A DNA stretch of 64,000 nucleotides from NCBI GenBank assembly GCA_964572855.1, contig CAZNGF010000002.1:30551-94550 (forward strand), written 5' to 3'. The first letter of the stretch is position 1. Each line of letters opens with the position of its first letter. The DNA is from an uncultured Thermotogae bacterium. GTDB taxonomy: Bacteria > Bipolaricaulota > Bipolaricaulia > RBG-16-55-9 > JAJCYT01. Of the stretch, positions 2,841 through 59,182 are shown in pieces. A model generated the notes under the pieces. That model made no database searches, had not been told where the DNA came from, and saw only the letters and a program-made list of their open reading frames with translations. The translations under genes were made by a program, and so were the position numbers.

Positions 2841-3797
2841 GTGGTTGAAACCGTGTTCCGAAAAACCGTGATCCCGATCGCCTACCTGCCGACCTCGGCC
2901 GCGACCTTGCGCTGGGGGGCACGGCTCACGCGTCGCCTCGGCAGCGACCTTACCGTGCTCTACACCGCGCAGGCCGCCCAGCAGGGCCCGCTGCACGCCA
3001 GCCTGGCGGCCGAGAAGATGTCCGAATGGGGGGTCGAACCGCCCAGCTTCGGTATCCTGCGCGAGGCCGAGGACGTGCTCAAGGCCGAGGGCGCGCTCAT
3101 GCTGGACGCCCGGGGACGGGTGGTGGAACGGCACGCCTTCAAGGCCGTCGACCGCGGCCTCTACGAGGTGCACGCGCGCGGCCCGCAAGGCGAAAACGTG
3201 CGCTTCCGGCTGCGGGAGGGTGCGGTCGTGAGCCAGATCCTGCAGGAAGTTGAGGACCCGTCCTACGACCTCATCTGCGTGGGCACCCGCGGCCGGCGCG
3301 GCTTCCGGCGCCACCTGCTGGGGAGCATCGCGCAGGACGTGGCCATGCACGCGCCGTGCTCGGTGCTGGTCGCCAAACACCTGGACCAAATCGAGCGGGT
3401 GCTCGTCGGCGTGACCGGCCGTGAGAGCTCGCGCGAGGCGTTGCGCCAGGCCGCCCAGCTGAGCCGCGCGCTCGAGCTCCCGCTCGAGCTCATCGCCATC
3501 TTCCCGAGCCCGGAACAGCGCGACGCCGCGGAGCAGAACCTCGCGGCGGGCATAGCGCTGGCCCGCGAGCTGGGCGTCGCTGCCACGCCGCGTCTCGAGC
3601 GCGGCGACCCCGCCCGGGTGCTGATCCACACCGCACTCGAGGGCACGCTGCTCGCGCTGGGGCGCACGCCGCTCTCGATGGTGCAAAAGTTCTTCCTCGG
3701 CGACACCTCGATCAAAGTTCTGGATCAAGGCCGGTGCTCGGTTCTCATTGCCGTCCCCCCCCGCCAGCCCGTGGAGGAAGACCGAACCGACGATTGA
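2841..3797 (+). CDS. Universal stress protein, tandem UspA domains.
   Basis: Two Usp-like halves are present. Each ends in the characteristic G(T/S)RGRRG…LGS(I/V)A…V…HAPC(S/P)VL(V/I) ATP-binding motif: LICVGTRGRRGFRRHLLGSIAQDVAMHAPCSVLVAKH, and a second, more degenerate C-terminal half LLALGRTPLSMVQKFFLGDTSIKVLDQGRCSVLIAV. The GTG start at 2841 is chosen because it lies just after the transporter stop at 2837-2839; the track ORF (from 2763) overlaps that gene. Confidence 0.65.
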   Translation: MVETVFRKTVIPIAYLPTSAATLRWGARLTRRLGSDLTVLYTAQAAQQGPLHASLAAEKMSEWGVEPPSFGILREAEDVLKAEGALMLDARGRVVERHAFKAVDRGLYEVHARGPQGENVRFRLREGAVVSQILQEVEDPSYDLICVGTRGRRGFRRHLLGSIAQDVAMHAPCSVLVAKHLDQIERVLVGVTGRESSREALRQAAQLSRALELPLELIAIFPSPEQRDAAEQNLAAGIALARELGVAATPRLERGDPARVLIHTALEGTLLALGRTPLSMVQKFFLGDTSIKVLDQGRCSVLIAVPPRQPVEEDRTDD

Positions 3798-3901
3798 GAC
3801 CCTTCGGCCCCGGCCGAGATCGGCACATGTCGGCTCGACCCGGGACAGACTTCGGCGCGCCCGCCAGCCCCCGTCCTCGTCCGCGGCGGACCGCTCCCGC
3901 T

Positions 3902-6820
3902 ATGCTGCGTCACCGTGACAAGGGGGGATCGGGAGTCGTGCGCACAAGCGTTTATCGTTTCGCGGGGGTGTCGCTTGCCGCCGTGCTAGTACTGACGGCG
4001 TGGGGGCAGCCTGCCGTTGGCGCCGACGCCCAAGTCTCGCTCGTCGCGCTCAACCGCACGGTGCGGGCCGACCCCGGCGCCTTCGTGACCCTGACCTTCC
4101 AGCTTCGGAACGAGGGCGATGCGGCCGTCGAGGTCCAACTGACCGCCGATATGCCGCCCGGATTGTCGCTCTTGGGTGGGCTCCCCGCGGTCATGCTCGC
4201 GGGCGCCTCGATCGAAAGCCTGTTCGTCACCGTCATCGTGAGCCGGGAAACCGAGGCGGGGCCGGCCATCGTTGCCTTGACTGCACGCATCGCGGGGGGA
4301 ATGGCGCGCGCCGAGGCGACCGTCGACGTCGAGCGCGTGGCCGGCCTTAGCTTGCGCCCTCCCCCGGATGGCTCGGCCGAGCCCGGCCAGTCCATCACGC
4401 TCGAATTCGGCGTAACCAACGACGGCAACGGCCCCGACCGGGTCGCCTTGGACGTGGACGCCCCGGCGGCGGTACAGGTCGCACCGACAAGCGCCTCGCT
4501 TACGCTGCTCGCGGGCGAAACCCGCCGGCTTGCGGTCACGCTGACCGTGCCGGCCGAAACCGACCTGCCGCGGGTTCGCGTCACGCTCGTGGCCAGCTCC
4601 ACCAGTTTCCCGACCGTGAGCGCTCGGGCAACGACCACGCTCGACGTGCTCCCTCCGCTGCCCGAGGCCGTGGGCGGGCGCCTCGTGCTCGAGGTGCCCA
4701 GCACCTTCGCGCTGGGGCCGACCGTCCTCCCCAACCGCGACGTCCCGCTGGTGCTCACGGCCAGTGTGGCGGGCGCGGCCGACTTCGACGACGGGGACCG
4801 CATCGACTATCGCCTCGCGCTCGACAACCTGGCCGTGCGCGACCTGCGTTTCGAACTGCGCCGCGGCGCGGTCGAGACCCGACTGGGTCGGCTCGCTGTG
4901 ACCTGGACCGAACTGATCGATCAAGCCGGAGACGGTGCTCAGCTCACGCTCGAGGGCCTGCCGTTGCAGGGGGCCGTGAGCCTGGCTGCGCTGCTCGACG
5001 GGCTCTGGCCCCGCGTGGGGACCCAACTCGGCGCGGATGTGGTCGGTATGCGACTCCAACTCAGCCAGCTCGCCCGCTTCGACCCCGAAGGGCGGGTCTG
5101 GCTCGGGTCGCTCTCGCTTACGCAATCCGTGGGCGAGGCGATTCGGTTAGGCAGCGAATGGGCACTCAGCCAAGCCGATACCGGGGAACGGGTTTGGGGC
5201 AACGTGATCCGTTTCGACTGGGAGGGGGACGACTTCCGCGTCGACGGCGAGTGGATCCGAACCGACGCGGCTTTCCTCGGCGACCGGCCCGGCCGGCGCG
5301 GGTTCCGGCTCGCCCAAGCGCTCGAGCACGACGATGTGGCCGTGCAGCTCGCCTACAGCCGCGTTCTCGATCAGGGGAACGTCTCAGGGACGGGCGCCCT
5401 GCTCGAAACCGCCTGGCGCTCGTCCCTGCGCTGGACGCCCTCGAGCCCGTGGCCTTCGTGGGTCGCACGCCTGGACTTCGACGGGGCGCACGCCCCCCCC
5501 AACCTGGGACAGTCAAGCCGCCTGCTGGCCAGCCTGGGGATGCGCCAGGAGATCGCTCCCCTCTCCCTCGGTGCCACTGCCAGCCGGCTGTCGTCGGTGG
5601 ACGCCACGGGCGCGCACGACGACTTGACGCTTCGCGCCGAGGCGGCGGTGGACCTGGCGCCGGCCCGTCTACTCCTGCGGGCCGGACAGACGCTTGCCGT
5701 CTCCCCGCTGCACGTCGCCCCGTCCCCCGCCGGCACCGAGCTGCTGGCCGCCCTGCAGCTCACCGGGGCGCTCGGGCGGGGGGCACTCTCCCTCCTGCTG
5801 TTGGGTGACGTGGTCACGGTCGACGCCGTGCTCGACTTACAAACGGGCCCCCTGCGCGCCGCAGCCGAGTTGGAACTCGAGCTCGACGCCGCCGGCCTGC
5901 TGAGCGCCGAGGCGCGCGCGGAACTCTCCGTGGCCTTCAACGCGCCGGTCGCCTTCATCCCGGTGGGCGGTCGGGTGACAGGGGTCGCCTTCGAGGACGC
6001 CAACCAGAACGGCCTCCGCGACTCCGACGAGGCTGGCATCGCCGACCTCGTGTTCCGCGTCGGCGACGCACGCGTCCGCACCGATGCGGAGGGACGCTAC
6101 CGCACGCCGCCGCTCTCCCCCGGGGCCTACGAGATCCGTCTAAACGCGCTCCCGCTCGAACTCGTCGCCGGACCCGTTCCCGGAACAGTCACCGTGAGCG
6201 CGGGGGAAACGAAACGGGCCGACCTGCCGCTCAACCGCGTGGGCGTCGTGCGCGGCGTCGTCTTTGACGACCGCGATCAAGACGGCATTCGGGACGCCGA
6301 CGAAGCCGGGCTGGAAAACGCGGTCGTGGACCTGCGTGGCGCGGGCCGCACCGCCCCCGGACGCACGGATGACCAAGGCCGCTTCAGCTTCAGCGGACTG
6401 GCCCCGGGGTCCTATCGCCTGACCCTCGATGTCTCCGCGCTCCCGCCCCGCAGCGAGCTCACCACCCCCGACACGATCGCGTTCACGCTTTCGCCGGGCC
6501 AAACCGTGGAAGCGGCCTTTGGCGCCTACCAAAGGCCGCGGGCCATCCGTTTCGTCCCGACCGCCACCTTCACCGTCTCTCCCGAGCTCCCGCAAGCGGG
6601 GGAACCCGTTACCTTTAACGGAAGCAACTCCTTCGATCCCGACGGGCGCGTCGTCGGCCACGCGTGGGATCTGGATGGAGACGGTCAAGCCGACGCGGAA
6701 GGCGCAACGGTCACGCGGACCTATGACCTGCCAGGCACCGTCCGCGTGACGCTCACCGTCCGCGACGACCAGGGGAACACGGACAGCTTAAGCCAAGACG
6801 TCGTGATCGCCGCGCCCTAG
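3902..6820 (+). CDS. Large secreted surface/adhesin-like protein carrying CARDB-like, Cna-B/SdrD-B-type (carboxypeptidase-regulatory-like) and C-terminal PKD domains.
   Basis: A signal peptide (…VYRFAGVSLAAVLVLTAWGQPAVGADA) is followed by repeated ~100-aa beta-sandwich modules with NDG/NEG motifs (CARDB-like). Two tandem repeats are of SdrD-B / Cna-B type: GRVTGVAFEDANQNGLRDSDEAGIADLVFRV…DAEGRYR and GVVRGVVFDDRDQDGIRDADEAGLENAVVDL…DDQGRFSF. The C-terminus (FNGSNSFDPDGRVVGHAWDLDGDGQ…VTLTVRDDQGNTD) is PKD-like. The start could be ATG 3902 or GTG 3938; the track start at 3734 runs through an R/P-rich, non-protein-like N-terminus. Confidence 0.7.
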   Translation: MLRHRDKGGSGVVRTSVYRFAGVSLAAVLVLTAWGQPAVGADAQVSLVALNRTVRADPGAFVTLTFQLRNEGDAAVEVQLTADMPPGLSLLGGLPAVMLAGASIESLFVTVIVSRETEAGPAIVALTARIAGGMARAEATVDVERVAGLSLRPPPDGSAEPGQSITLEFGVTNDGNGPDRVALDVDAPAAVQVAPTSASLTLLAGETRRLAVTLTVPAETDLPRVRVTLVASSTSFPTVSARATTTLDVLPPLPEAVGGRLVLEVPSTFALGPTVLPNRDVPLVLTASVAGAADFDDGDRIDYRLALDNLAVRDLRFELRRGAVETRLGRLAVTWTELIDQAGDGAQLTLEGLPLQGAVSLAALLDGLWPRVGTQLGADVVGMRLQLSQLARFDPEGRVWLGSLSLTQSVGEAIRLGSEWALSQADTGERVWGNVIRFDWEGDDFRVDGEWIRTDAAFLGDRPGRRGFRLAQALEHDDVAVQLAYSRVLDQGNVSGTGALLETAWRSSLRWTPSSPWPSWVARLDFDGAHAPPNLGQSSRLLASLGMRQEIAPLSLGATASRLSSVDATGAHDDLTLRAEAAVDLAPARLLLRAGQTLAVSPLHVAPSPAGTELLAALQLTGALGRGALSLLLLGDVVTVDAVLDLQTGPLRAAAELELELDAAGLLSAEARAELSVAFNAPVAFIPVGGRVTGVAFEDANQNGLRDSDEAGIADLVFRVGDARVRTDAEGRYRTPPLSPGAYEIRLNALPLELVAGPVPGTVTVSAGETKRADLPLNRVGVVRGVVFDDRDQDGIRDADEAGLENAVVDLRGAGRTAPGRTDDQGRFSFSGLAPGSYRLTLDVSALPPRSELTTPDTIAFTLSPGQTVEAAFGAYQRPRAIRFVPTATFTVSPELPQAGEPVTFNGSNSFDPDGRVVGHAWDLDGDGQADAEGATVTRTYDLPGTVRVTLTVRDDQGNTDSLSQDVVIAAP

Positions 6821-6848: not shown

Positions 6849-6876
6849 GTCTAGAATGGTTGCCATTAGGTATACT
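6849..6876 (+). promoter_or_regulatory. Copy 1 of a promoter-like motif GTCTA-N15-GGTATACT, resembling a sigma-B-type -35/-10 pair.
   Basis: GTCTA at 6849-6853 and GGTATACT at 6869-6876. The same bipartite motif recurs at 8700-8728 and 9075-9102. It is followed by a strong SD (AAAGGAGGTG) and an ATG at 6905. Confidence 0.3.
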
Positions 6877-7121
6877 TGGAAAACGTTGAAAGGAGGTGTG
6901 ACCCATGCAGCGCCGCGTCGGACGCACGCAATCGCAGCGCGAGACAGCCCAAACGGCCCGTCTCCGTCGTGAGGTGTCCGTCGCGCGCAGCGGTGTCACG
7001 CCACCACAACCGCAAGAAACCTTGCACGTGGTCGCTAAGCGCCAGTTGGGGCTCATCGATCCGATGAGCGTGGTCTTATGTGGTTACGCGGGTCAAACCG
7101 ATCGTTTCTTCATGGAAGCAT

Positions 7122-7180
7122 CTACAAGGGCAAACCAAGCGAAAGCCTGGGGCGCAAAGCTACGGCCTTCTAGGTCCGCA
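7122..7180 (+). promoter_or_regulatory. Possible degenerate or partial upstream c-di-GMP-I (GEMM)-like aptamer, i.e. the 5' half of a tandem arrangement.
   Basis: The sequence aagGGCAAACCaagcGAAAGcctggGGCGCAAAGCtacgg closely matches the GEMM 5' half: GGCAAACC, then a P2 hairpin with a GAAA tetraloop, then GACGCAAAGCC. No convincing 3' half (ACAGCCGGG…ACCG) follows before the next aptamer begins. Confidence 0.3.
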
Positions 7181-7252
7181 CGAACAAGGCAAACCCGCCG
7201 CGAGGCGGCGACGCAAAGCCACGGGTCTCTTGCAGACAGCCGGGCTACCGTA
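7178..7252 (+). promoter_or_regulatory. c-di-GMP-I (GEMM) riboswitch-like aptamer in the 5' leader of the downstream secreted pilin-like gene.
   Basis: The sequence acaaGGCAAACCcgccGCGAggcgGCGACGCAAAGCCacgggtctcttgcagACAGCCGGGCTACCG carries the hallmark GEMM-I blocks. These are GGCAAACC, a P2 hairpin with a GNRA tetraloop, GACGCAAAGCC, and a P3 with a conserved 3' ACAGCCGGG(Y)UACCG. A near-identical arrangement is found at 9150-9222. Downstream, CCTAATG…CATTAGGAGG could form a hairpin that sequesters the RBS. Confidence 0.55.
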
Positions 7253-7307
7253 GCGTACCTAATGGTGGCAGAGCCGCTAGATGCGACATCATTAGGAGGT
7301 GCTTTTT

Positions 7308-7745
7308 ATGAAGAAAGTAAGCATGTTGTTTGCGACGTTTGCGGTGTTGGGCATGGTGACAATGGCCGTTTGGGCCGGCAACAGCGACAAGGCGCAGGTT
7401 GGCTTCTCGTTGGAGCAGTACTTTTCACTGGAAGTCAAAAACGGCGCCAACGTCGAGTTCGGCACGCTGGACGCCCTGGCCGGGCCGTTCGAGAAGAAAA
7501 ACGGTTCCGCGCTCAAGGTCGACAGCAACACGAGCTGGAGCATCAGCACCAGCAAAGCGGTGCTGACGAGCCCCAACGGCGCCAACGCCGACACCGTACT
7601 CAACGCCCTGGCCGTCTCGCTCGAAACCGAGAGCGGGATAGGCAAAGACGCGGACATCAAGGTGGATTACGCCTTGGACAACCTCGAGGACCTGCCCACG
7701 GGTGACTATGTCGTCGAGGTGACGTTTACGGGTAGCACCAAGTAA
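7308..7745 (+). CDS. Small secreted protein (145 aa), paralog of the 9233..9748 product. Putative donor-strand pilin-like subunit (SCPU/CsuA/B-like).
   Basis: RBS AGGAGGTG precedes ATG 7308, and the signal peptide is MKKVSMLFATFAVLGMVTMAVWA. The mature N-terminus has an alternating-hydrophobic strand (QVGFSLEQYFSLEV). The C-terminus, …KVDYALDNLEDLPTGDYVVEVTFTGSTK, resembles the G-x-Y-x-D-T-L-x-V-T-V-x-F ending of SCPU/Csu pilins. It is clearly homologous to the second paralog (SNTSWSIS…/SNAPWVVN…; VDYALD…GDYVVEV / VDYRVR…GDYALDL). Confidence 0.6.
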   Translation: MKKVSMLFATFAVLGMVTMAVWAGNSDKAQVGFSLEQYFSLEVKNGANVEFGTLDALAGPFEKKNGSALKVDSNTSWSISTSKAVLTSPNGANADTVLNALAVSLETESGIGKDADIKVDYALDNLEDLPTGDYVVEVTFTGSTK

Positions 7746-7789
7746 CCCACATAAGGCTGCCACATAGGACCACTGCTGCAAGCAAGCAC

Positions 7790-7819
7790 GCGGGGGCGGG
7801 TCAAGCGACCTGCCCCCGC
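7790..7819 (+). terminator. GC-rich hairpin, candidate intrinsic terminator after the pilin-like gene.
   Basis: GCGGGGGCGGGTC-aagc-GACCTGCCCCCGC forms a 13-bp stem with one G·U pair. It lies 45 nt after the stop at 7745. The 3' U-tract is weak (ctcattg). Confidence 0.4.
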
Positions 7820-7923
7820 CTCATTGTCCCCGACCGCCCAAGGTCATCGTCGTTACAGGGGGGCCTGCGTGGGTACGCTAGAATTGGGTACAATCTCCGT
7901 ATCCACCCCGCTCCCGGAGGCTT

Positions 7924-8697
7924 TTGGCGATGGATTCAGAACAACTTCTTGCGCAACTGGCTCGGCTGCACGCCCAAGCCGCGCCGCAGGATCAAATCCT
8001 CAAGCTCAAGGAGGAGCTCGTTGAGGCCAACGTCGGCCTCGTGACCTCGATAGCCAAGCGCTTCGTCCACTCCGGCGAACCCTTAGAGGATCTCGTTCAG
8101 GCCGGCTACATCGGCCTCCTCAACGCCGTCCACAACTTCGACCTCAACCGCGGCACCAAGTTCTCGACTTACGCCACTTACCTCATCCAGGGCGAAATCC
8201 GGCACCACATCCGCGACAAGAACACCACCATCCGCCTGCCGCAGTGGCTTCAAAAGCTGAGCCAACAGGTCAAGCGCGCCGAGGAGCGTTTCTATCAGGA
8301 ACACGGACGCCTGCCCACCATCGCCCAGCTTTCCGACGCCCTCAACATCGAGGAGGACGGCATTCGAGAAGCCCTCAAGGCCCGCGAAGCGCTTCATTAC
8401 GTCTCCATCGATGCCGAGCGTCGAGAAGAGGATCCCCGTCCCCTCGCCTTCGACCCGAGCAAGATCCGCAGCAAACACCCGGACGAGTTCCCGATCGAGT
8501 ACAGGATTAAGATCGCCTCCGCCATCGAGACGCTCACCGACCTGCAACAGCGCGTCATCAACGACCTCTTCTACGCCGGCAAATCCCAAGCCCAGGTGGG
8601 CCAGGAGGTCGGTTACTCCCAGCGCCACATCTCCCGCATCAAGCAAGAGGTCCTCGATGCCATCAGGGGAGAATTCGACGAGCAGGACCCCGAATAA
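7924..8697 (+). CDS. RNA polymerase sigma factor, sigma-70 family group 3 (SigB/SigF/SigG-like).
   Basis: 257 aa. Region 2 (DLVQAGYIGLLNAVHNFDLNRGTKFSTYATYLIQGEIRHHIRDK) and region 4 HTH (QRVINDLFYAGKSQAQVGQEVGYSQRHISRIKQEVLDAIRGEF) are recognisable, with no region 1.1. A GGAGG RBS lies 10 nt upstream of the ATG. A TACAAT -10-like hexamer is at 7889-7894. Confidence 0.85.
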   Translation: MAMDSEQLLAQLARLHAQAAPQDQILKLKEELVEANVGLVTSIAKRFVHSGEPLEDLVQAGYIGLLNAVHNFDLNRGTKFSTYATYLIQGEIRHHIRDKNTTIRLPQWLQKLSQQVKRAEERFYQEHGRLPTIAQLSDALNIEEDGIREALKAREALHYVSIDAERREEDPRPLAFDPSKIRSKHPDEFPIEYRIKIASAIETLTDLQQRVINDLFYAGKSQAQVGQEVGYSQRHISRIKQEVLDAIRGEFDEQDPE

Positions 8698-8699
8698 GG

Positions 8700-8728
8700 T
8701 CTACGCGCCCGCGCTTCTAGGTATACTC
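8700..8728 (+). promoter_or_regulatory. Copy 2 of the GTCTA-N16-GGTATACT promoter-like motif.
   Basis: GTCTA at 8700-8704 and GGTATACT at 8721-8728. It lies 36 nt upstream of ATG 8764. Confidence 0.35.
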
Positions 8729-8763
8729 CCAAGCAACGATGGGACGCGGACGGAAGGACGCCC

Positions 8764-9057
8764 ATGAGTGATACCGCCAACGCGGACGATCGGGGGGAGT
8801 TCCTCGTGACACTGCTCAGCGACGTCAACAGCGCCATTAGCGAACTGGTCGACCTCAGCGTCGCCTGGTCGAACGGCGACTTCCCGCGCGCCCACGCCAA
8901 GTGCGACTTGGTTTTCGCGCGACTCGAGCGCGCCGCCGCGGCCGCCCAGGGAGAAGCAACCCGTTCGGCGCGTGCCCAACGTTACCTCCACCAGCTGGAC
9001 GACGTTCGCGACCAACTGACCCCGCTGCGCCCCATCCTCGCCAACCGCATCGGTTAA
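8764..9057 (+). CDS. Hypothetical protein (97 aa), acidic N-terminus, no recognisable domain.
   Basis: ORF directly downstream of the sigma factor gene and behind motif copy 2. The composition is protein-like (MSDTANADDRGEFLVTLLSDVNSAISELVDLS…). No signal peptide. Confidence 0.45.
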   Translation: MSDTANADDRGEFLVTLLSDVNSAISELVDLSVAWSNGDFPRAHAKCDLVFARLERAAAAAQGEATRSARAQRYLHQLDDVRDQLTPLRPILANRIG

Positions 9058-9074
9058 GCCTTCATCCCGTGAAT

Positions 9075-9102
9075 GTCTAACTCGGCCGCTTCCAGGTATA
9101 AT
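9075..9102 (+). promoter_or_regulatory. Copy 3 of the GTCTA-N15-GGTATAAT promoter-like motif, directly upstream of the second riboswitch leader.
   Basis: GTCTA at 9075-9079 and GGTATAAT at 9095-9102. The predicted TSS lies ~9108-9110 at the conserved leader element TTACCGCGGTCAAA, which is also present at 7084-7098. Confidence 0.4.
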
Positions 9103-9149
9103 CATTACCGCGGTCAAATGCCGCCGTGAAGAAGCCACAGCTTCACATC

Positions 9150-9222
9150 GCGAAAAAGGTAAACCCGCCGCGAGACGGGGACACAAAGCCACGGGTCTCT
9201 AGAAGACAGCCGGGCCGCCGAA
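9150..9222 (+). promoter_or_regulatory. c-di-GMP-I (GEMM) riboswitch-like aptamer, second copy.
   Basis: The sequence aaaaaGGTAAACCcgccGCGAgacgggGACACAAAGCCacgggtctctagaagACAGCCGGGCCGCCG has the same block order as the 7178-7252 copy. Differences sit at loop or compensatory positions (loop cttgc vs ctagaag). The aptamer ends 11 nt before ATG 9233 and directly abuts the RBS (GAAGGGGTGAAGC-ATG), which is consistent with translational control. Confidence 0.55.
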
Positions 9223-9232
9223 GGGGTGAAGC

Positions 9233-9748
9233 ATGAGACACGCAAACCTTAGCTTGCTCGCGCTTGGCGCGCTGCTCGTTTTCGTCGGCGGCTTTTGGGC
9301 CGATGGTGCAACCCAGACCGAGGTCGTTTTTCACCTCGCGCCGTTTCAAACCCTCTCGCTGGCGGACGGACCCTTCGGTGCGCGCACCGCTTACAGCGTG
9401 CACATCCCACAGCCCAGCGCGCGCGAACTCGCCCGCGGTCACGTCGACGTTCCGGGGGCGGTCACCCTCAACGTCCACAGCAACGCCCCGTGGGTCGTCA
9501 ACGTCCGCGCCCTCAGTCCGGACATGGGCCACAGCGACGACGGCGCCGTCACCAAGCCACTCGCCGACTTTCAACTCCGCGCCGCAAATCGCCCCTACAT
9601 CACACTCGATACCCAAGACCAACGACTCATCCAGGGAGACCACGGACGCTTCTCCTTCGAGGTGGACTACCGCGTCCGCTTCGACCCACGCACCCATCGC
9701 GACGGCGACTATGCGCTCGACCTCCTCTACACCATCACCAGTCGCTGA
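9233..9748 (+). CDS. Small secreted protein (171 aa), paralog of 7308..7745. Putative SCPU/Csu-like donor-strand pilin subunit.
   Basis: Signal peptide MRHANLSLLALGALLVFVGGFWA. Homologous blocks to paralog 1 are present, including the C-terminal …FEVDYRVRFDPRTHRDGDYALDLLYTITSR. The gene is preceded by riboswitch copy 2. Confidence 0.6.
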   Translation: MRHANLSLLALGALLVFVGGFWADGATQTEVVFHLAPFQTLSLADGPFGARTAYSVHIPQPSARELARGHVDVPGAVTLNVHSNAPWVVNVRALSPDMGHSDDGAVTKPLADFQLRAANRPYITLDTQDQRLIQGDHGRFSFEVDYRVRFDPRTHRDGDYALDLLYTITSR

Positions 9749-9802
9749 CCTATGTGGACGTGCGTCCTTGCCGCTGCGCTCAGTTCCCGCCAAACTGACC
9801 TC

Positions 9803-10840
9803 ATGAAGCCGCCCATCTACCTACTCATCGCCGCAGTGGTCCTGATTGTTGTCGCCCCGCCGGCCCAGGCGCTTCGCCTCTCCCGAATCGAGTTCGACCT
9901 CTCCCTCCCGCCCGGCGCGCGGGAAACCTTTTCCTTCCACGTTTTCAACGACGAGGCGGAGGAAACCACCGTTTCGCTCTCGCTGGCCGACTGGGATCGA
10001 ACGCTCGACGGCGAGAATCGTTTCTTCGAGCCCGGCACCAACGCGCGCTCGGCCAGCGATTGGATCACCTTCGCCCCCAACCAGTTCACCCTCGCGCCCG
10101 ACGAAACCGCCGAGGTCCGCTTCACCCTCAACGTCCCCCCCGACGTCCGCGGCACCCACTGGGCAGCCCTCTTGGTCGAAGGCTCGCCGCGCGAGGTCGA
10201 CACCCAGGGCGGGACCACCATCCTCGTTCGCCGCCGTTTCGCCGTCAAGATCCTGCAAACCCCTCCCGACACCGGGGCGCAGGACATACGGCTCCTCGGG
10301 CTCGACGTCGCGGGCCTTAACCCCCTTACCGTTCACCTTCGCGTCCGCAACGCCGGCACGCGCAACCTCGCCGCCGTCAAGGGCCGCCTCGAGCTGCGCG
10401 ACCAAACCGGCACGCTCGAATCCGTCCCCATCGAGGACTTTCCCATGCTTCCCGGCGCCGAGCGGCGCGTCACCGTCGCCAGCAAACGCTTCCGCAACGA
10501 GCCCTTCCCCGCCGGCCGCTTCCTCGTCCTCGCCATCCTAGATTTCGGCGGGGACGACCTGCTCGGCGGCCAGCTCAACCTCAACGTCCCAGCTATCCAG
10601 CTCGCCCCCCTGGAGCCTCAATTGTCACTGCCTCAGGACCTCGACCGGGACGGTCTGTTCGAGGATGTCAACGGAGACGGCCAACTGACCGACGACGACC
10701 CCGTCCTCCTCGGCTTCCACTTGGACAATCCGGCCGTCCTCGACAACCATCGCCTCTTCGATTACGACAACGACGGCGACGTGGACTTCGACGACGTGCT
10801 CGCCCTCCGCGCCCGCGTCGAAACCCAATCCGACGCCTAA
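9803..10840 (+). CDS. Secreted protein with an N-terminal fimbrial-chaperone-like (PapD-like Ig-fold?) region and a C-terminal dockerin-type Ca-binding repeat pair.
   Basis: The preferred start is ATG 9803, which gives the signal peptide MKPPIYLLIAAVVLIVVAPPAQA. An alternative ATG at 9752 lies 3 nt after the pilin stop. The N-terminal segment RIEFDLSLPPGARETFSFHVFNDEAEETTVSLSLADW resembles the chaperone N-domain pattern. The C-terminus DVNGDGQLTDDDPVLL…DYDNDGDVDFDDVLAL is a dockerin / EF-hand-like duplicated D-x-N/D-x-D-G motif. Confidence 0.5.
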   Translation: MKPPIYLLIAAVVLIVVAPPAQALRLSRIEFDLSLPPGARETFSFHVFNDEAEETTVSLSLADWDRTLDGENRFFEPGTNARSASDWITFAPNQFTLAPDETAEVRFTLNVPPDVRGTHWAALLVEGSPREVDTQGGTTILVRRRFAVKILQTPPDTGAQDIRLLGLDVAGLNPLTVHLRVRNAGTRNLAAVKGRLELRDQTGTLESVPIEDFPMLPGAERRVTVASKRFRNEPFPAGRFLVLAILDFGGDDLLGGQLNLNVPAIQLAPLEPQLSLPQDLDRDGLFEDVNGDGQLTDDDPVLLGFHLDNPAVLDNHRLFDYDNDGDVDFDDVLALRARVETQSDA

Positions 10841-10949
10841 GCCCTCCAGCTGTCCGCTAGACGAATGCCCGCCGCCTGACGGACTTGCGTCCCTGTGCTC
10901 CCGACTCCCCCGCGTTACATTGCACACAACATTGGGAAGGAGGACAATC

Positions 10950-11495
10950 ATGCGAAAGGTGTATTCCTGTTTAGCCCTGCTATTGCTTGCCGTTTCCCTC
11001 GTCTCAGCAGTCCCCACAGACGCCTATGCCCGCGACGGTGCGGCCGGCGGCGTCTTCTTCGATCCGGCCGGTGGTCTCTCCGACGGCGGCGTGCTCCCCA
11101 TGACCCGTCTAGTACTCGGCAGCGGCTTCACCGTTGCTCATCTCGACATCCTCTTCGGCATCTCCACCGCGTCCATCCCCAACCCGGGCGTTCGCTTCCT
11201 CCCGTATTGGGTCTTGAACTTCCCGCTCAAGTTCAGCTCCCTGGCCGTTCTCACACCATACTTTGGGGTCTCCCCGGTCCTCTTCACCACCAGCGCACTC
11301 GCCGTGCCGCCTGCCGCCGACTGGATCTTCAAGTTCGGCACCACCTTTACCTTCGGCGGTTTTGGCTTTTTCGCAGAAACCGGCTTCTTCGTCCCCTTGG
11401 CCTCGTTCCCGGCCTTCGCCGTAGGCTTCAGTGTCGATTTCGAATCCATGGATTCCCTCTTTTGCGACACGTGCATCGACGAATCCGTCTACTGA
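10950..11495 (+). CDS. Hypothetical secreted protein (181 aa), Gly/Phe-rich beta-rich C-terminal half.
   Basis: RBS GGAAGGAGG precedes the ATG. Signal peptide MRKVYSCLALLLLAVSLVSAVPTDAYA. No recognisable domain. It is the last gene of the accessory cluster. Confidence 0.5.
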   Translation: MRKVYSCLALLLLAVSLVSAVPTDAYARDGAAGGVFFDPAGGLSDGGVLPMTRLVLGSGFTVAHLDILFGISTASIPNPGVRFLPYWVLNFPLKFSSLAVLTPYFGVSPVLFTTSALAVPPAADWIFKFGTTFTFGGFGFFAETGFFVPLASFPAFAVGFSVDFESMDSLFCDTCIDESVY

Positions 11496-59106: not shown

Positions 59107-59182
59107 GTCCCCATCGTCTAGCGGCCTAGGACACCGCTCTTTCAAGGCGGCGGCGGGGGTTCGAATCCCCCTGGGGACGCCA
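59107..59182 (+). tRNA. tRNA-Glu (anticodon UUC).
   Basis: GTCCCCATCGTCTAGCGGCCTAGGACACCGCTCTTTCAAGGCGGCGGCGGGGGTTCGAATCCCCCTGGGGACGCCA. The acceptor stem pairs GTCCCCA with TGGGGAC, the anticodon loop is CTTTCAA, and CCA is encoded. A TATAAT hexamer lies ~15 nt upstream. Confidence 0.9.

Follow-up and report, generated by a model that had tools for sequence, protein, structure and literature searches.

Riboswitches of the cyclic di-GMP (c-di-GMP)-I class are common in front of surface-structure genes, and the control of adhesins and pili by c-di-GMP is familiar. The class represented by RF01051 and by Vc2 of Vibrio cholerae folds into a three-helix junction with a GGCAAAC...GNRA...GACGCAAAG core, in which the P2 tetraloop docks into P3 and G20, A47, and C92 are the diagnostic residues; in the Vc2 structure, A47 is sandwiched by the two guanine bases of the ligand. 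The related c-di-GMP-I-GGC family (RF03167) has a short P3 and a GYRA tetraloop, and its name presumably gives the residues at positions 20, 47, and 92, as the consensus of the model suggests. Leaders with more than one aptamer also have precedents. In the tandem glycine riboswitch, two adjacent aptamers dock side by side and serve one platform, with tertiary coupling between the domains, and singlet glycine riboswitches are known to contain ghost aptamers. In serial c-di-GMP-I tandems, including the triplet of Bacillus thuringiensis, sensors of the same ligand stand side by side in one leader, each with its own expression platform, and a steeper dose-response is expected. Sherlock et al. (2022) reported 347 c-di-GMP-I doublets and 12 triplets, the tandems being listed under multiple expression platforms (PMC9481103).

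Here, a 64,000-nucleotide (nt) stretch of DNA from an uncultured Thermotogae bacterium (contig CAZNGF010000002.1, positions 30,551 to 94,550; referred to below as the window) was analyzed. Two genes in the window that encode homologous secreted proteins with an immunoglobulin-like (Ig) fold each carry, in the 5' leader, an aptamer of the c-di-GMP-I clan with the canonical contact residues. This base of the finding is ordinary for the class, whose core features recur in both full aptamers and in the spliced outer one. The leader of the first gene (leader 1) departs from it in that, according to the reading that we favor with moderate confidence, it is an aptamer within an aptamer, with the full aptamer at the tip of P3 of an outer one. 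Compared with RF01051, leader 1 appears to hold a complete aptamer inside the P3 of another, and its platform would use a far-upstream strand complementary to the Shine-Dalgarno region (anti-SD) that closes the whole domain. Unlike the side-by-side serial tandems, it would be concentric with one platform; in contrast to the glycine riboswitch, its two domains would be coupled along a coaxial stem that they have in common (outer P3, receptor, and inner P1); and unlike ghost-aptamer singlets, its upstream half retains the binding residues. A targeted literature search found no description of nested same-class aptamers with one platform, and the word "nested" is absent from the 2022 tandem-riboswitch survey (PMC9481103). 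Conditional on experimental confirmation, the new element would be the concentric pair of same-class aptamers with a single platform; if true, the nested layout would add another structural means of sensing a ligand cooperatively. We tentatively outline, as one possible picture of the whole, a nested leader 1 that acts as a cooperative ON switch while gene 2 is turned OFF, so that c-di-GMP swaps two subunits of an undescribed fiber of the donor-strand type under a dedicated SigB/F-like sigma factor.

The preliminary description of this DNA, which was made from the letters alone, had called the leaders of the genes that begin at 7308 and 9233 c-di-GMP-I (GEMM) riboswitches. A covariance search of Rfam 15 (cmscan at gathering thresholds, 59 for RF03167 and 35 for RF01051) bears this out, with both leaders matching clan CL00126 above the gathering threshold directly upstream of the respective gene starts. 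Aptamer 1 (7179-7253, + strand) matches model positions 1-80 of RF03167 at 70.0 bits (E = 1.6e-14), and aptamer 2 (9149-9223, + strand) covers the full model at 76.2 bits (E = 2.7e-16); two more matches from the clan, at or above their own gathering scores, are masked by clan competition. In the cmscan alignments and the sequence, the residues that we take to correspond to G20, A47, and C92 in Vc2 numbering are G7188, A7215, and C7248 in aptamer 1 and G9158, A9185, and C9218 in aptamer 2. At the A47 site, the RF03167 consensus reads GACGCGAAgCc and that of RF01051 GACGCAAAgCc; the window has GACGCAAAGCC and GACACAAAGCC, with GCAAAG at 7213-7218 and ACAAAG at 9183-9188. Because A47 and the equivalents of G20 and C92 are all present, both full aptamers are, going by their binding-site residues, canonical c-di-GMP aptamers, and ligand binding is predicted. 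The P2 of aptamer 1 is capped by a GCGA tetraloop. The claim that the two copies differ only in loops or in compensatory ways is also sustained: one pair is clearly compensatory (C7190-G7213 in copy 1 and U9160-A9184 in copy 2, that is, G-C/C-G to G-C/U-A), and the remaining differences are located in the P3 loop and the junctions.

Homologous leaders were found upstream of orthologous genes in related genomes. Both gene families are rare in a word-indexed search, with five matches for that of gene 1 and two for that of gene 2, yet every recovered contig that reaches far enough upstream bears a riboswitch. The orthologous aptamers keep all helices in the seven loci L002 to L008 and score 58 to 81 bits in L002 to L007. 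The L006 copy, which is cut at its 5' end, scores 57.9 bits against RF03167, and the aptamer 2 orthologues score 62.4 bits (L008) and 69.7 bits (L005, where the copy is cut by the contig end). Four of these loci (L002, L003, L004, and L007) have a full aptamer together with an upstream half, L008 and L249 are of the leader 2 type, and L005 repeats the order gene 1, sigma factor, small open reading frame (ORF), and aptamer. Further loci came from a pattern scan for the 5' half followed by a nearby second aptamer start. Its matches in metagenomes are mostly due to chance; among those listed, L130, L137, L148, L175, L186, L197, and L243 are genuine, and the same scan identified a composite leader in a Candidatus Acetothermia metagenome-assembled genome (L062). 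Among L062 and the metagenomic contigs, six have a regulated gene from the protein family of genes 1 and 2. The distant lineage L186 shows the whole layout, namely, a nested leader with a family gene, followed by a single riboswitch with a paralogue (873-948 and 1666-1740, both on the - strand). Two aptamers deviate at contact positions: the inner aptamer of L007 (L007:2913-2987) has U at the C92 position (GCUGUCGCAG), and the outer aptamer of L130 (L130:780-844) has A at the G20 position. Judging by these residues, both are possible specificity variants; A20 is typical of cGAMP-binding relatives.

A third, partial 5' half immediately upstream of copy 1 had been interpreted as a tandem or decayed aptamer. 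The partial element is indeed there: a permissive Rfam search (291 nt) yields a subthreshold RF03167-type match at 7120-7168 (33.3 bits against the gathering score of 59; E = 2.5e-06) in which the entire second hairpin of the model (P3) is skipped. A decayed or simple tandem copy is a poor description of it, given that the element is more conserved than the protein downstream, covaries, keeps G20 and A47, and has a distal 3' half. The upstream half is read here as part of an outer aptamer because its counterpart, this conserved 3' half, lies downstream of the full aptamer. The outer 5' half (7125-7167, + strand), delineated by the Rfam match and by its presence in related lineages, comprises the junction CAAGG with G7129 as the G20 equivalent, a GC at 7130-31 that pairs with GC at 7154-55, a P2 hairpin (7135-7150) with a GAAA loop, A7156 as the A47 equivalent, and the 5' strand of P3 (AGCU-A-CGGCC, 7158-7167). 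It is followed at 7168-7178 (+ strand) by a strand identified by pairing and a permutation test, in which UUCUA resembles part of a receptor and GGUCCG would be the 5' strand of an extension of the inner P1. The 3' half (7254-7284, + strand; spliced alignment, folding, and covariance model) consists, in order, of CGUACC (7254-7259), the receptor-like UAAU, GG (7264-65), a UGG bulge, CAG-AGCC as the 3' strand of P3 ending at 7275, G7276-C7277 as the equivalent of R-C92, and UAGAUGC. In the resulting fold, outer P1 would form between 7118-24 (GCAUCUA) and 7278-84 (UAGAUGC, which mimics the SD flank) and outer P3 between 7158-67 and 7264-75, and the inner aptamer would be lengthened by GGUCCG/CGUACC (7173-78/7254-59). 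The internal loop UUCUA/UAAU, with CC/GG on its flanks, is similar to the tetraloop receptor seen in aptamers of the Vc2 type.

The conservation of these parts was followed across the related loci. The upstream half is seen in L002, L003, L004, L007, L062, L137, L148, L175, L186, L197, and L243; it is nearly invariant between loci with proteins that are only 60% identical and is kept with covariation in at least six lineages. Its P2 reads CCAAGC/GCUUGG in L002, L003, and L004 and CCAAGC/GCCUGG, with one mismatch, in the window; the other versions are CCACGC/GCGUGG, CCGUCC/GGGCGG, CUGGAG/UUCCAG, and CCGAGC/GUUCGG, so that five pairs are changed on both sides, with GAAA as the loop throughout. 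Downstream of the full aptamer, all lineages have the string (A/U)UGG-UGG-C(A/C)G-AGC(U/C)-GC, and in all of them the 5 to 7 nt that come after it are complementary to the flank 5' of the upstream half.

The outer aptamer was also analyzed with the inner one removed, in an alignment of nine such spliced sequences. When the inner aptamer is replaced by a tetraloop, the spliced outers of L007, L062, and L175 fold unaided into the GEMM-I three-way junction. The proposed outer pairs are formed in 83 to 87% of the alignment cells, compared with 29 to 42% when the partners are slid by one to three columns; outer P3 is 86% paired, and the equivalents of G20, A47, and C92 (G7129, A7156, and C7277) are invariant while their neighbors vary. 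A covariance model made from the spliced outers matches canonical aptamers in 52 of 52 unrelated genome loci over model positions 1-99 (E values of 1e-6 to 1e-13), in each case aligning the distal segment with the 3' strand of P3 and the GC of the canonical aptamer. Cognate and noncognate strand combinations from six lineages were compared in a permutation test (720 permutations), which replaced a fixed-column count for P1. Cognate pairing of the 5' flank with the distal strand (outer P1) is the most stable of the 720 permutations, and pairing of 7173-78 with 7254-59 is likewise the best; the latter helix is present in the minimum free energy (MFE) fold of a transcript that ends at 7287.

The outer aptamer would be invisible to standard covariance annotation, scoring as a subthreshold half. 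In addition, the spliced-outer model matches the window at 7177-7286 (46.3 bits), joining the inner 5' half to the distal 3' half. A covariance model thus treats the inner and outer 5' halves alike, one more reason to expect that automated annotation would misread leader 1.

The expression platform of leader 1 appears to act on translation. The SD of gene 1 (AGGAGGU, 7294-7300), the AUG at 7308, and the first codons (7294-7316, + strand) are buried in the ligand-free MFE structure. The unconstrained fold of the full leader has a helix of about 19 bp between 7105-7123 and the SD/start region at 7297-7316. Within the anti-start/anti-SD strand (7105-7124, + strand; full-leader MFE and permutation test), UUUCUUCAU (7105-7113) pairs with the start region AUGAAGAAA (7308-7316), and GCAUCUA (7118-7124) has two possible partners, namely, UAGAUGC at 7278-7284, forming outer P1, or the SD flank AGGUGCUU (7297-7304). 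UAGAUGC thus mimics the AGGUGC of the SD flank, and both compete for GCAUCU. The cognate pairing of the 5' leader with the start is again the best of 720 permutations across the six lineages. The same MFE structure contains an alternative hairpin, here denoted H (CCUAAUGGUG/CAUCAUUAGG, 7258-67/7287-96, + strand), which excludes the nested fold and places UAGAUGC in its loop, as well as a helix (7159-65/7248-54) that uses up the 3' strand of the inner P1. Hairpin H is found in the full-leader MFE of the window and of four other lineages (permutation P = 0.0028), with compensatory changes in L062 (CCUAUUGGUGG/CCACCAAUAGG), and the SD and AUG are sequestered in the MFE of five lineages (the window, L007, L062, L175, and L186). 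A transcript ending at 7287, in turn, folds with outer P1, the inner P1 extension, and the inner aptamer. Because the two mutually exclusive sets of structures both covary in the permutation test, leader 1 carries the signature of a switch.

In the proposed mechanism, without ligand the 7105-7124 strand would pair with the SD and start, and hairpin H together with 7159-65/7248-54 would break both aptamers, leaving translation OFF. Binding of c-di-GMP at both sites would lock 7118-24 on the SD mimic at 7278-84 as outer P1 and free the SD, turning translation ON; ligand caught during transcription would hold the anti-SD strand on the mimic. Both aptamers would share one translational platform, and the response is probably steep because the two sites are coupled. 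The predicted polarity, an ON switch that requires both sites, is the least secure step of this scheme. A transcription terminator mechanism was considered and rejected, as neither leader has a predicted intrinsic terminator or terminator-like site on the + strand.

Leader 2 has a simpler design. Its upstream hairpin (9126-9148, + strand; MFE) contains a mimic of the SD flank, GUGAAG (9126-9131), and an anti-SD, GCUUCAC (9140-9146), and is closed at the base by CGUGA with UCGCG, the latter being the 5' strand of the aptamer P1. The anti-SD has an alternative partner in GUGAAGC (9226-9232), the spacer between the SD (GAAGGGGUG) and the AUG at 9233 (9220-9235, + strand; constrained fold): when the aptamer is enforced, the MFE pairs 9140-46 with 9226-32, stacked on P1. 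The duplicated 7-mer (GGUGAAGC/GCUUCAC) is also present in L008, and in the second riboswitch of L186 an extended P1 (GCGUCCCG/CGAAGGACG) covers the SD directly. Accordingly built, leader 2 might work as a single-aptamer OFF switch, a suggestion thinly supported by few sequences: ligand-stabilized P1 would stack on GCUUCAC/GUGAAGC and hide the SD and spacer, and without ligand the upstream decoy hairpin would hold the anti-SD. A remnant outer aptamer in leader 2 was rejected, the alignment similarity having no counterpart in L008 or L249.

Several observations weigh against the nested fold and the switch polarities proposed here. The outer P3 of the window is imperfect, with A7158.C7275 and G7164.A7270 mismatched. 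RNAalifold, applied to a MAFFT alignment of the spliced outers, recovered only P2 and the GC/GC pairs, not outer P1 or P3, and instead put an unsupported local hairpin at columns 84-100 (about 7263-7279). The register of outer P1 varies by lineage, and a fixed-column count gives 58 to 70% paired; the sample is formed by about six independent lineages. The nested fold lies about 20 kcal/mol above the MFE, with ligand and tertiary energy not counted, and the start codon is still able to pair with 7105-13 in it, which makes the ON polarity uncertain. In leader 2, the anti-SD of L249 has one uncompensated change. The upstream elements of L062 and L137, finally, have a local mini-P3 followed by GC, and this bears directly on the main rival explanation, a serial tandem, in which the upstream element would be a minimal self-contained aptamer with a short local P3 (7163-7178) and 7264-7284 just platform. 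In these two lineages, the 62-nt upstream element spans the full RF01051 model at 37 bits (gathering score, 35), by virtue of a local AGCU-G-CG/CG-GGCU stem and the GC that comes after it; moreover, the local hairpin CGGCC/GG(U)CCG is compensated in L007 as CGACC/GG(U)UCG, and the 347 doublets of Sherlock et al. (2022; PMC9481103) show such an arrangement to have precedents. However, the window, L175, L186, L197, and L243 lack the local AGCU partner, the R-C92, and the 3' strand of P1, and Rfam skips P3; the distal GG-UGG-CNG-AGCU-GC and the strand after it, which is complementary to the 5' flank, are kept in all lineages and covary with that flank; and it is only the long-range helix that offers the invariant GAAA loop a receptor-like partner. 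Between the upstream half and the full aptamer there is also no SD or terminator that would set the two apart as independent tandem units. On this balance, we regard the serial tandem as unlikely.

Two further explanations concern what the aptamers do. The upstream half could be a nonbinding helper or remnant, as a duplicate in decay or as a ghost aptamer retained purely as a structural or anti-SD scaffold for a single functional aptamer. The low score of the upstream element (only 33 bits) and the mismatches in the putative outer P3 of the window fit this view, which we nevertheless consider quite improbable: the element hardly varies between loci whose proteins share only 60% identity, compensatory changes occur in its P2, and the equivalents of G20, A47, and C92 stay constant next to variable neighbors, although a pure scaffold would not need those residues. 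The other explanation questions the ligand. RF03167 is the best Rfam family for every aptamer of the lineage (58 to 81 bits against 59), and all could be true c-di-GMP-I-GGC variants that sense a ligand other than c-di-GMP. Yet at the defining position, every orthologous aptamer has A, as in the RF01051 consensus, and not the G that replaces A47 in the variant; other clan families also reach their gathering scores; and the same P2 sequence together with A47 is widespread and is found in over 120 stretches of genome sequence, from Chloroflexota, Actinomycetota, Rubrobacter, Deinococcus, and others. We therefore hold a true GGC identity to be highly improbable. The top score of RF03167 is probably explained by a seed that resembles high-GC aptamers with a short P3. 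To the c-di-GMP-I assignment of the preliminary description it has to be added that the top Rfam family is the GGC variant, the defining G of which is absent. Rfam labels would call these RNAs a GGC variant without the defining nucleotide, a caution for those who use such labels.

The regulated proteins were described from the outset as small, secreted, and mutually homologous. Gene 1 (7308-7745, + strand) encodes a 145-residue secreted protein with an Ig fold whose orthologues are 60 to 91% identical, and gene 2 (9233-9748, + strand) encodes a 171-residue paralogue. Pairwise, the similarity of the two products is weak (21% identity; E = 0.02), but the profiles of their orthologue sets align over 134 columns with an hhalign probability of 97.4% (E = 1.4e-11). 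From these profiles, the two genes are divergent paralogues, and the homology claim stands. The family members are 145 to 175 residues long, with a hydrophobic, signal-like segment at the N terminus and the motifs SN..W and GDY.v.VtfT, and the family includes 515 cluster representatives at E <= 1e-3. Neither Pfam nor NCBIfam has a family model that matches the regulated proteins. The riboswitches point to a sizeable family of secreted Ig-fold proteins that lacks annotation and give a testable lead to its regulation and perhaps its biological role.

The structure of the gene 1 product was modeled with AlphaFold2 (AF2; predicted local distance difference test [pLDDT] score of 78, with residues 1-40 at low confidence). 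In a Foldseek search of the PDB, TLP-1a was the best match (E = 3e-3; template modeling score, 0.59), followed by the PapG pilin domain, Caf1, TasA, CsuA/B, and CfaB, none of these matches being statistically strong; the same holds for TLP-2, which the family profile reached in the PDB at E = 0.017. TLP-1 fibrils polymerize through donor-strand exchange (PMC11494351; PDB 9IKJ/9IKK). Because the nearest structural match polymerizes in this way, the label "pilin-like" given earlier to both genes is a reasonable, if provisional, one on the evidence of the model. A possible likeness to fibers built by donor-strand exchange (TLP-1a/b, chaperone-usher pilins, TasA, and archaeal bundling pili/threads) lies in a secreted Ig-like sandwich of about 15 kDa and, in the predicted model, an N-terminal strand of low confidence that follows the signal peptide; the low confidence of residues 1-40 would be the one hint of polymerization via an N-terminal donor strand. 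Near genes 1 and 2, no usher, PapD-type chaperone, TapA, or SipW could be identified. The statement that the locus fits no described system holds for the protein family, for which there is no Pfam or NCBIfam model and the nearest structure is the uncharacterized TLP-1 fibril.

Gene 2 is followed by a gene for a 344-residue protein (9806-10840, + strand) with an Ig-like domain and a dockerin-like C terminus, and then by one for a 181-residue secreted protein (10950-11495, + strand); fn3_5 and WxLIP_PGBD gave weak matches in the region 9233-11495. Because a 55% identical homologue follows the type 1 gene in L006, the 344-residue protein is, by this comparison, a conserved partner. Its single-sequence AF2 model (pLDDT, 42) was discarded. 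Directly upstream of the locus, positions 3734-6820 encode a secreted 1,028-residue protein with NEW3/CARDB-like, SdrD-B, carboxypeptidase-regulatory-like, and PKD domains, an orthologue of which precedes the locus in L002 as well but does not do so in L007.

The gene between the two units (7930-8697, + strand) encodes, as initially proposed, a group 3 sigma factor. The SigB/SigF/SigG-like product contains Pfam Sigma70 regions 2, 3, and 4, and its closest family is TIGR02980, with a score (194.9 bits) below the curated cutoff of 234.35; a sigma factor gene occupies the same position in L005. Between this gene and leader 2 lies a predicted ORF of 97 residues (8764-9057, + strand) that has no match in Pfam or NCBIfam; ORFs of 101 to 106 residues are found at the same place in L005 and L249. 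This small protein may act alongside the sigma factor or regulate it. A promoter-like motif occurs in three copies on the + strand, all detected by pattern scan: GTCTAG-N13-AGGTAT(ACT) before leader 1 (6849-6877; also conserved), a copy before the 97-residue ORF (8699-8727), and GTCTAA-N13-AGGTAT-AAT before leader 2 (9075-9103). The pattern GTCTM-N12-15-AGGNAYA has these three occurrences in the window, compared with 0.19 expected by chance. The form GTCTA(A/G/C)-N13-14-AGGTAT, which resembles SigB/F-type promoters, also lies upstream of the riboswitches in L002, L003, L004, L005, L007, L008, L062, L186, and L249; in L186, the second, single riboswitch is preceded by the same motif. We infer that the SigB/F/G-like sigma factor of the locus probably transcribes both units through the GTCTAA-N13-14-AGGTAT motif.

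Other features of the window include a strong SD (AGGAGGUG, 6891-6907) with an AUG at 6905, from which a frame is open through the whole of leader 1 and both aptamers to 7705. In L002, L003, L004, and L007, the corresponding frame, which likewise has an SD and AUG of its own, is open as well, although without conservation of the amino acid sequence; the leader of L062 is much shorter and lacks this ORF. No GGDEF or EAL-type motif was found in the long ORFs of the window. A transfer-messenger RNA (tmRNA) gene (973-1330, - strand; 163.7 bits) and a tRNA gene (59107-59179, + strand) were also detected. Finally, a hairpin at 7048-7085 shows compensatory changes (GCUCAUCG..CGAUGAGC in the window and GCCCAUC..GAUGGGC in L002) and is followed by an invariant block, GCGUGGUCUUAUGUGG, which in L007 stands at a different distance from the aptamers and might serve as an attenuator, an additional promoter, or a protein site.

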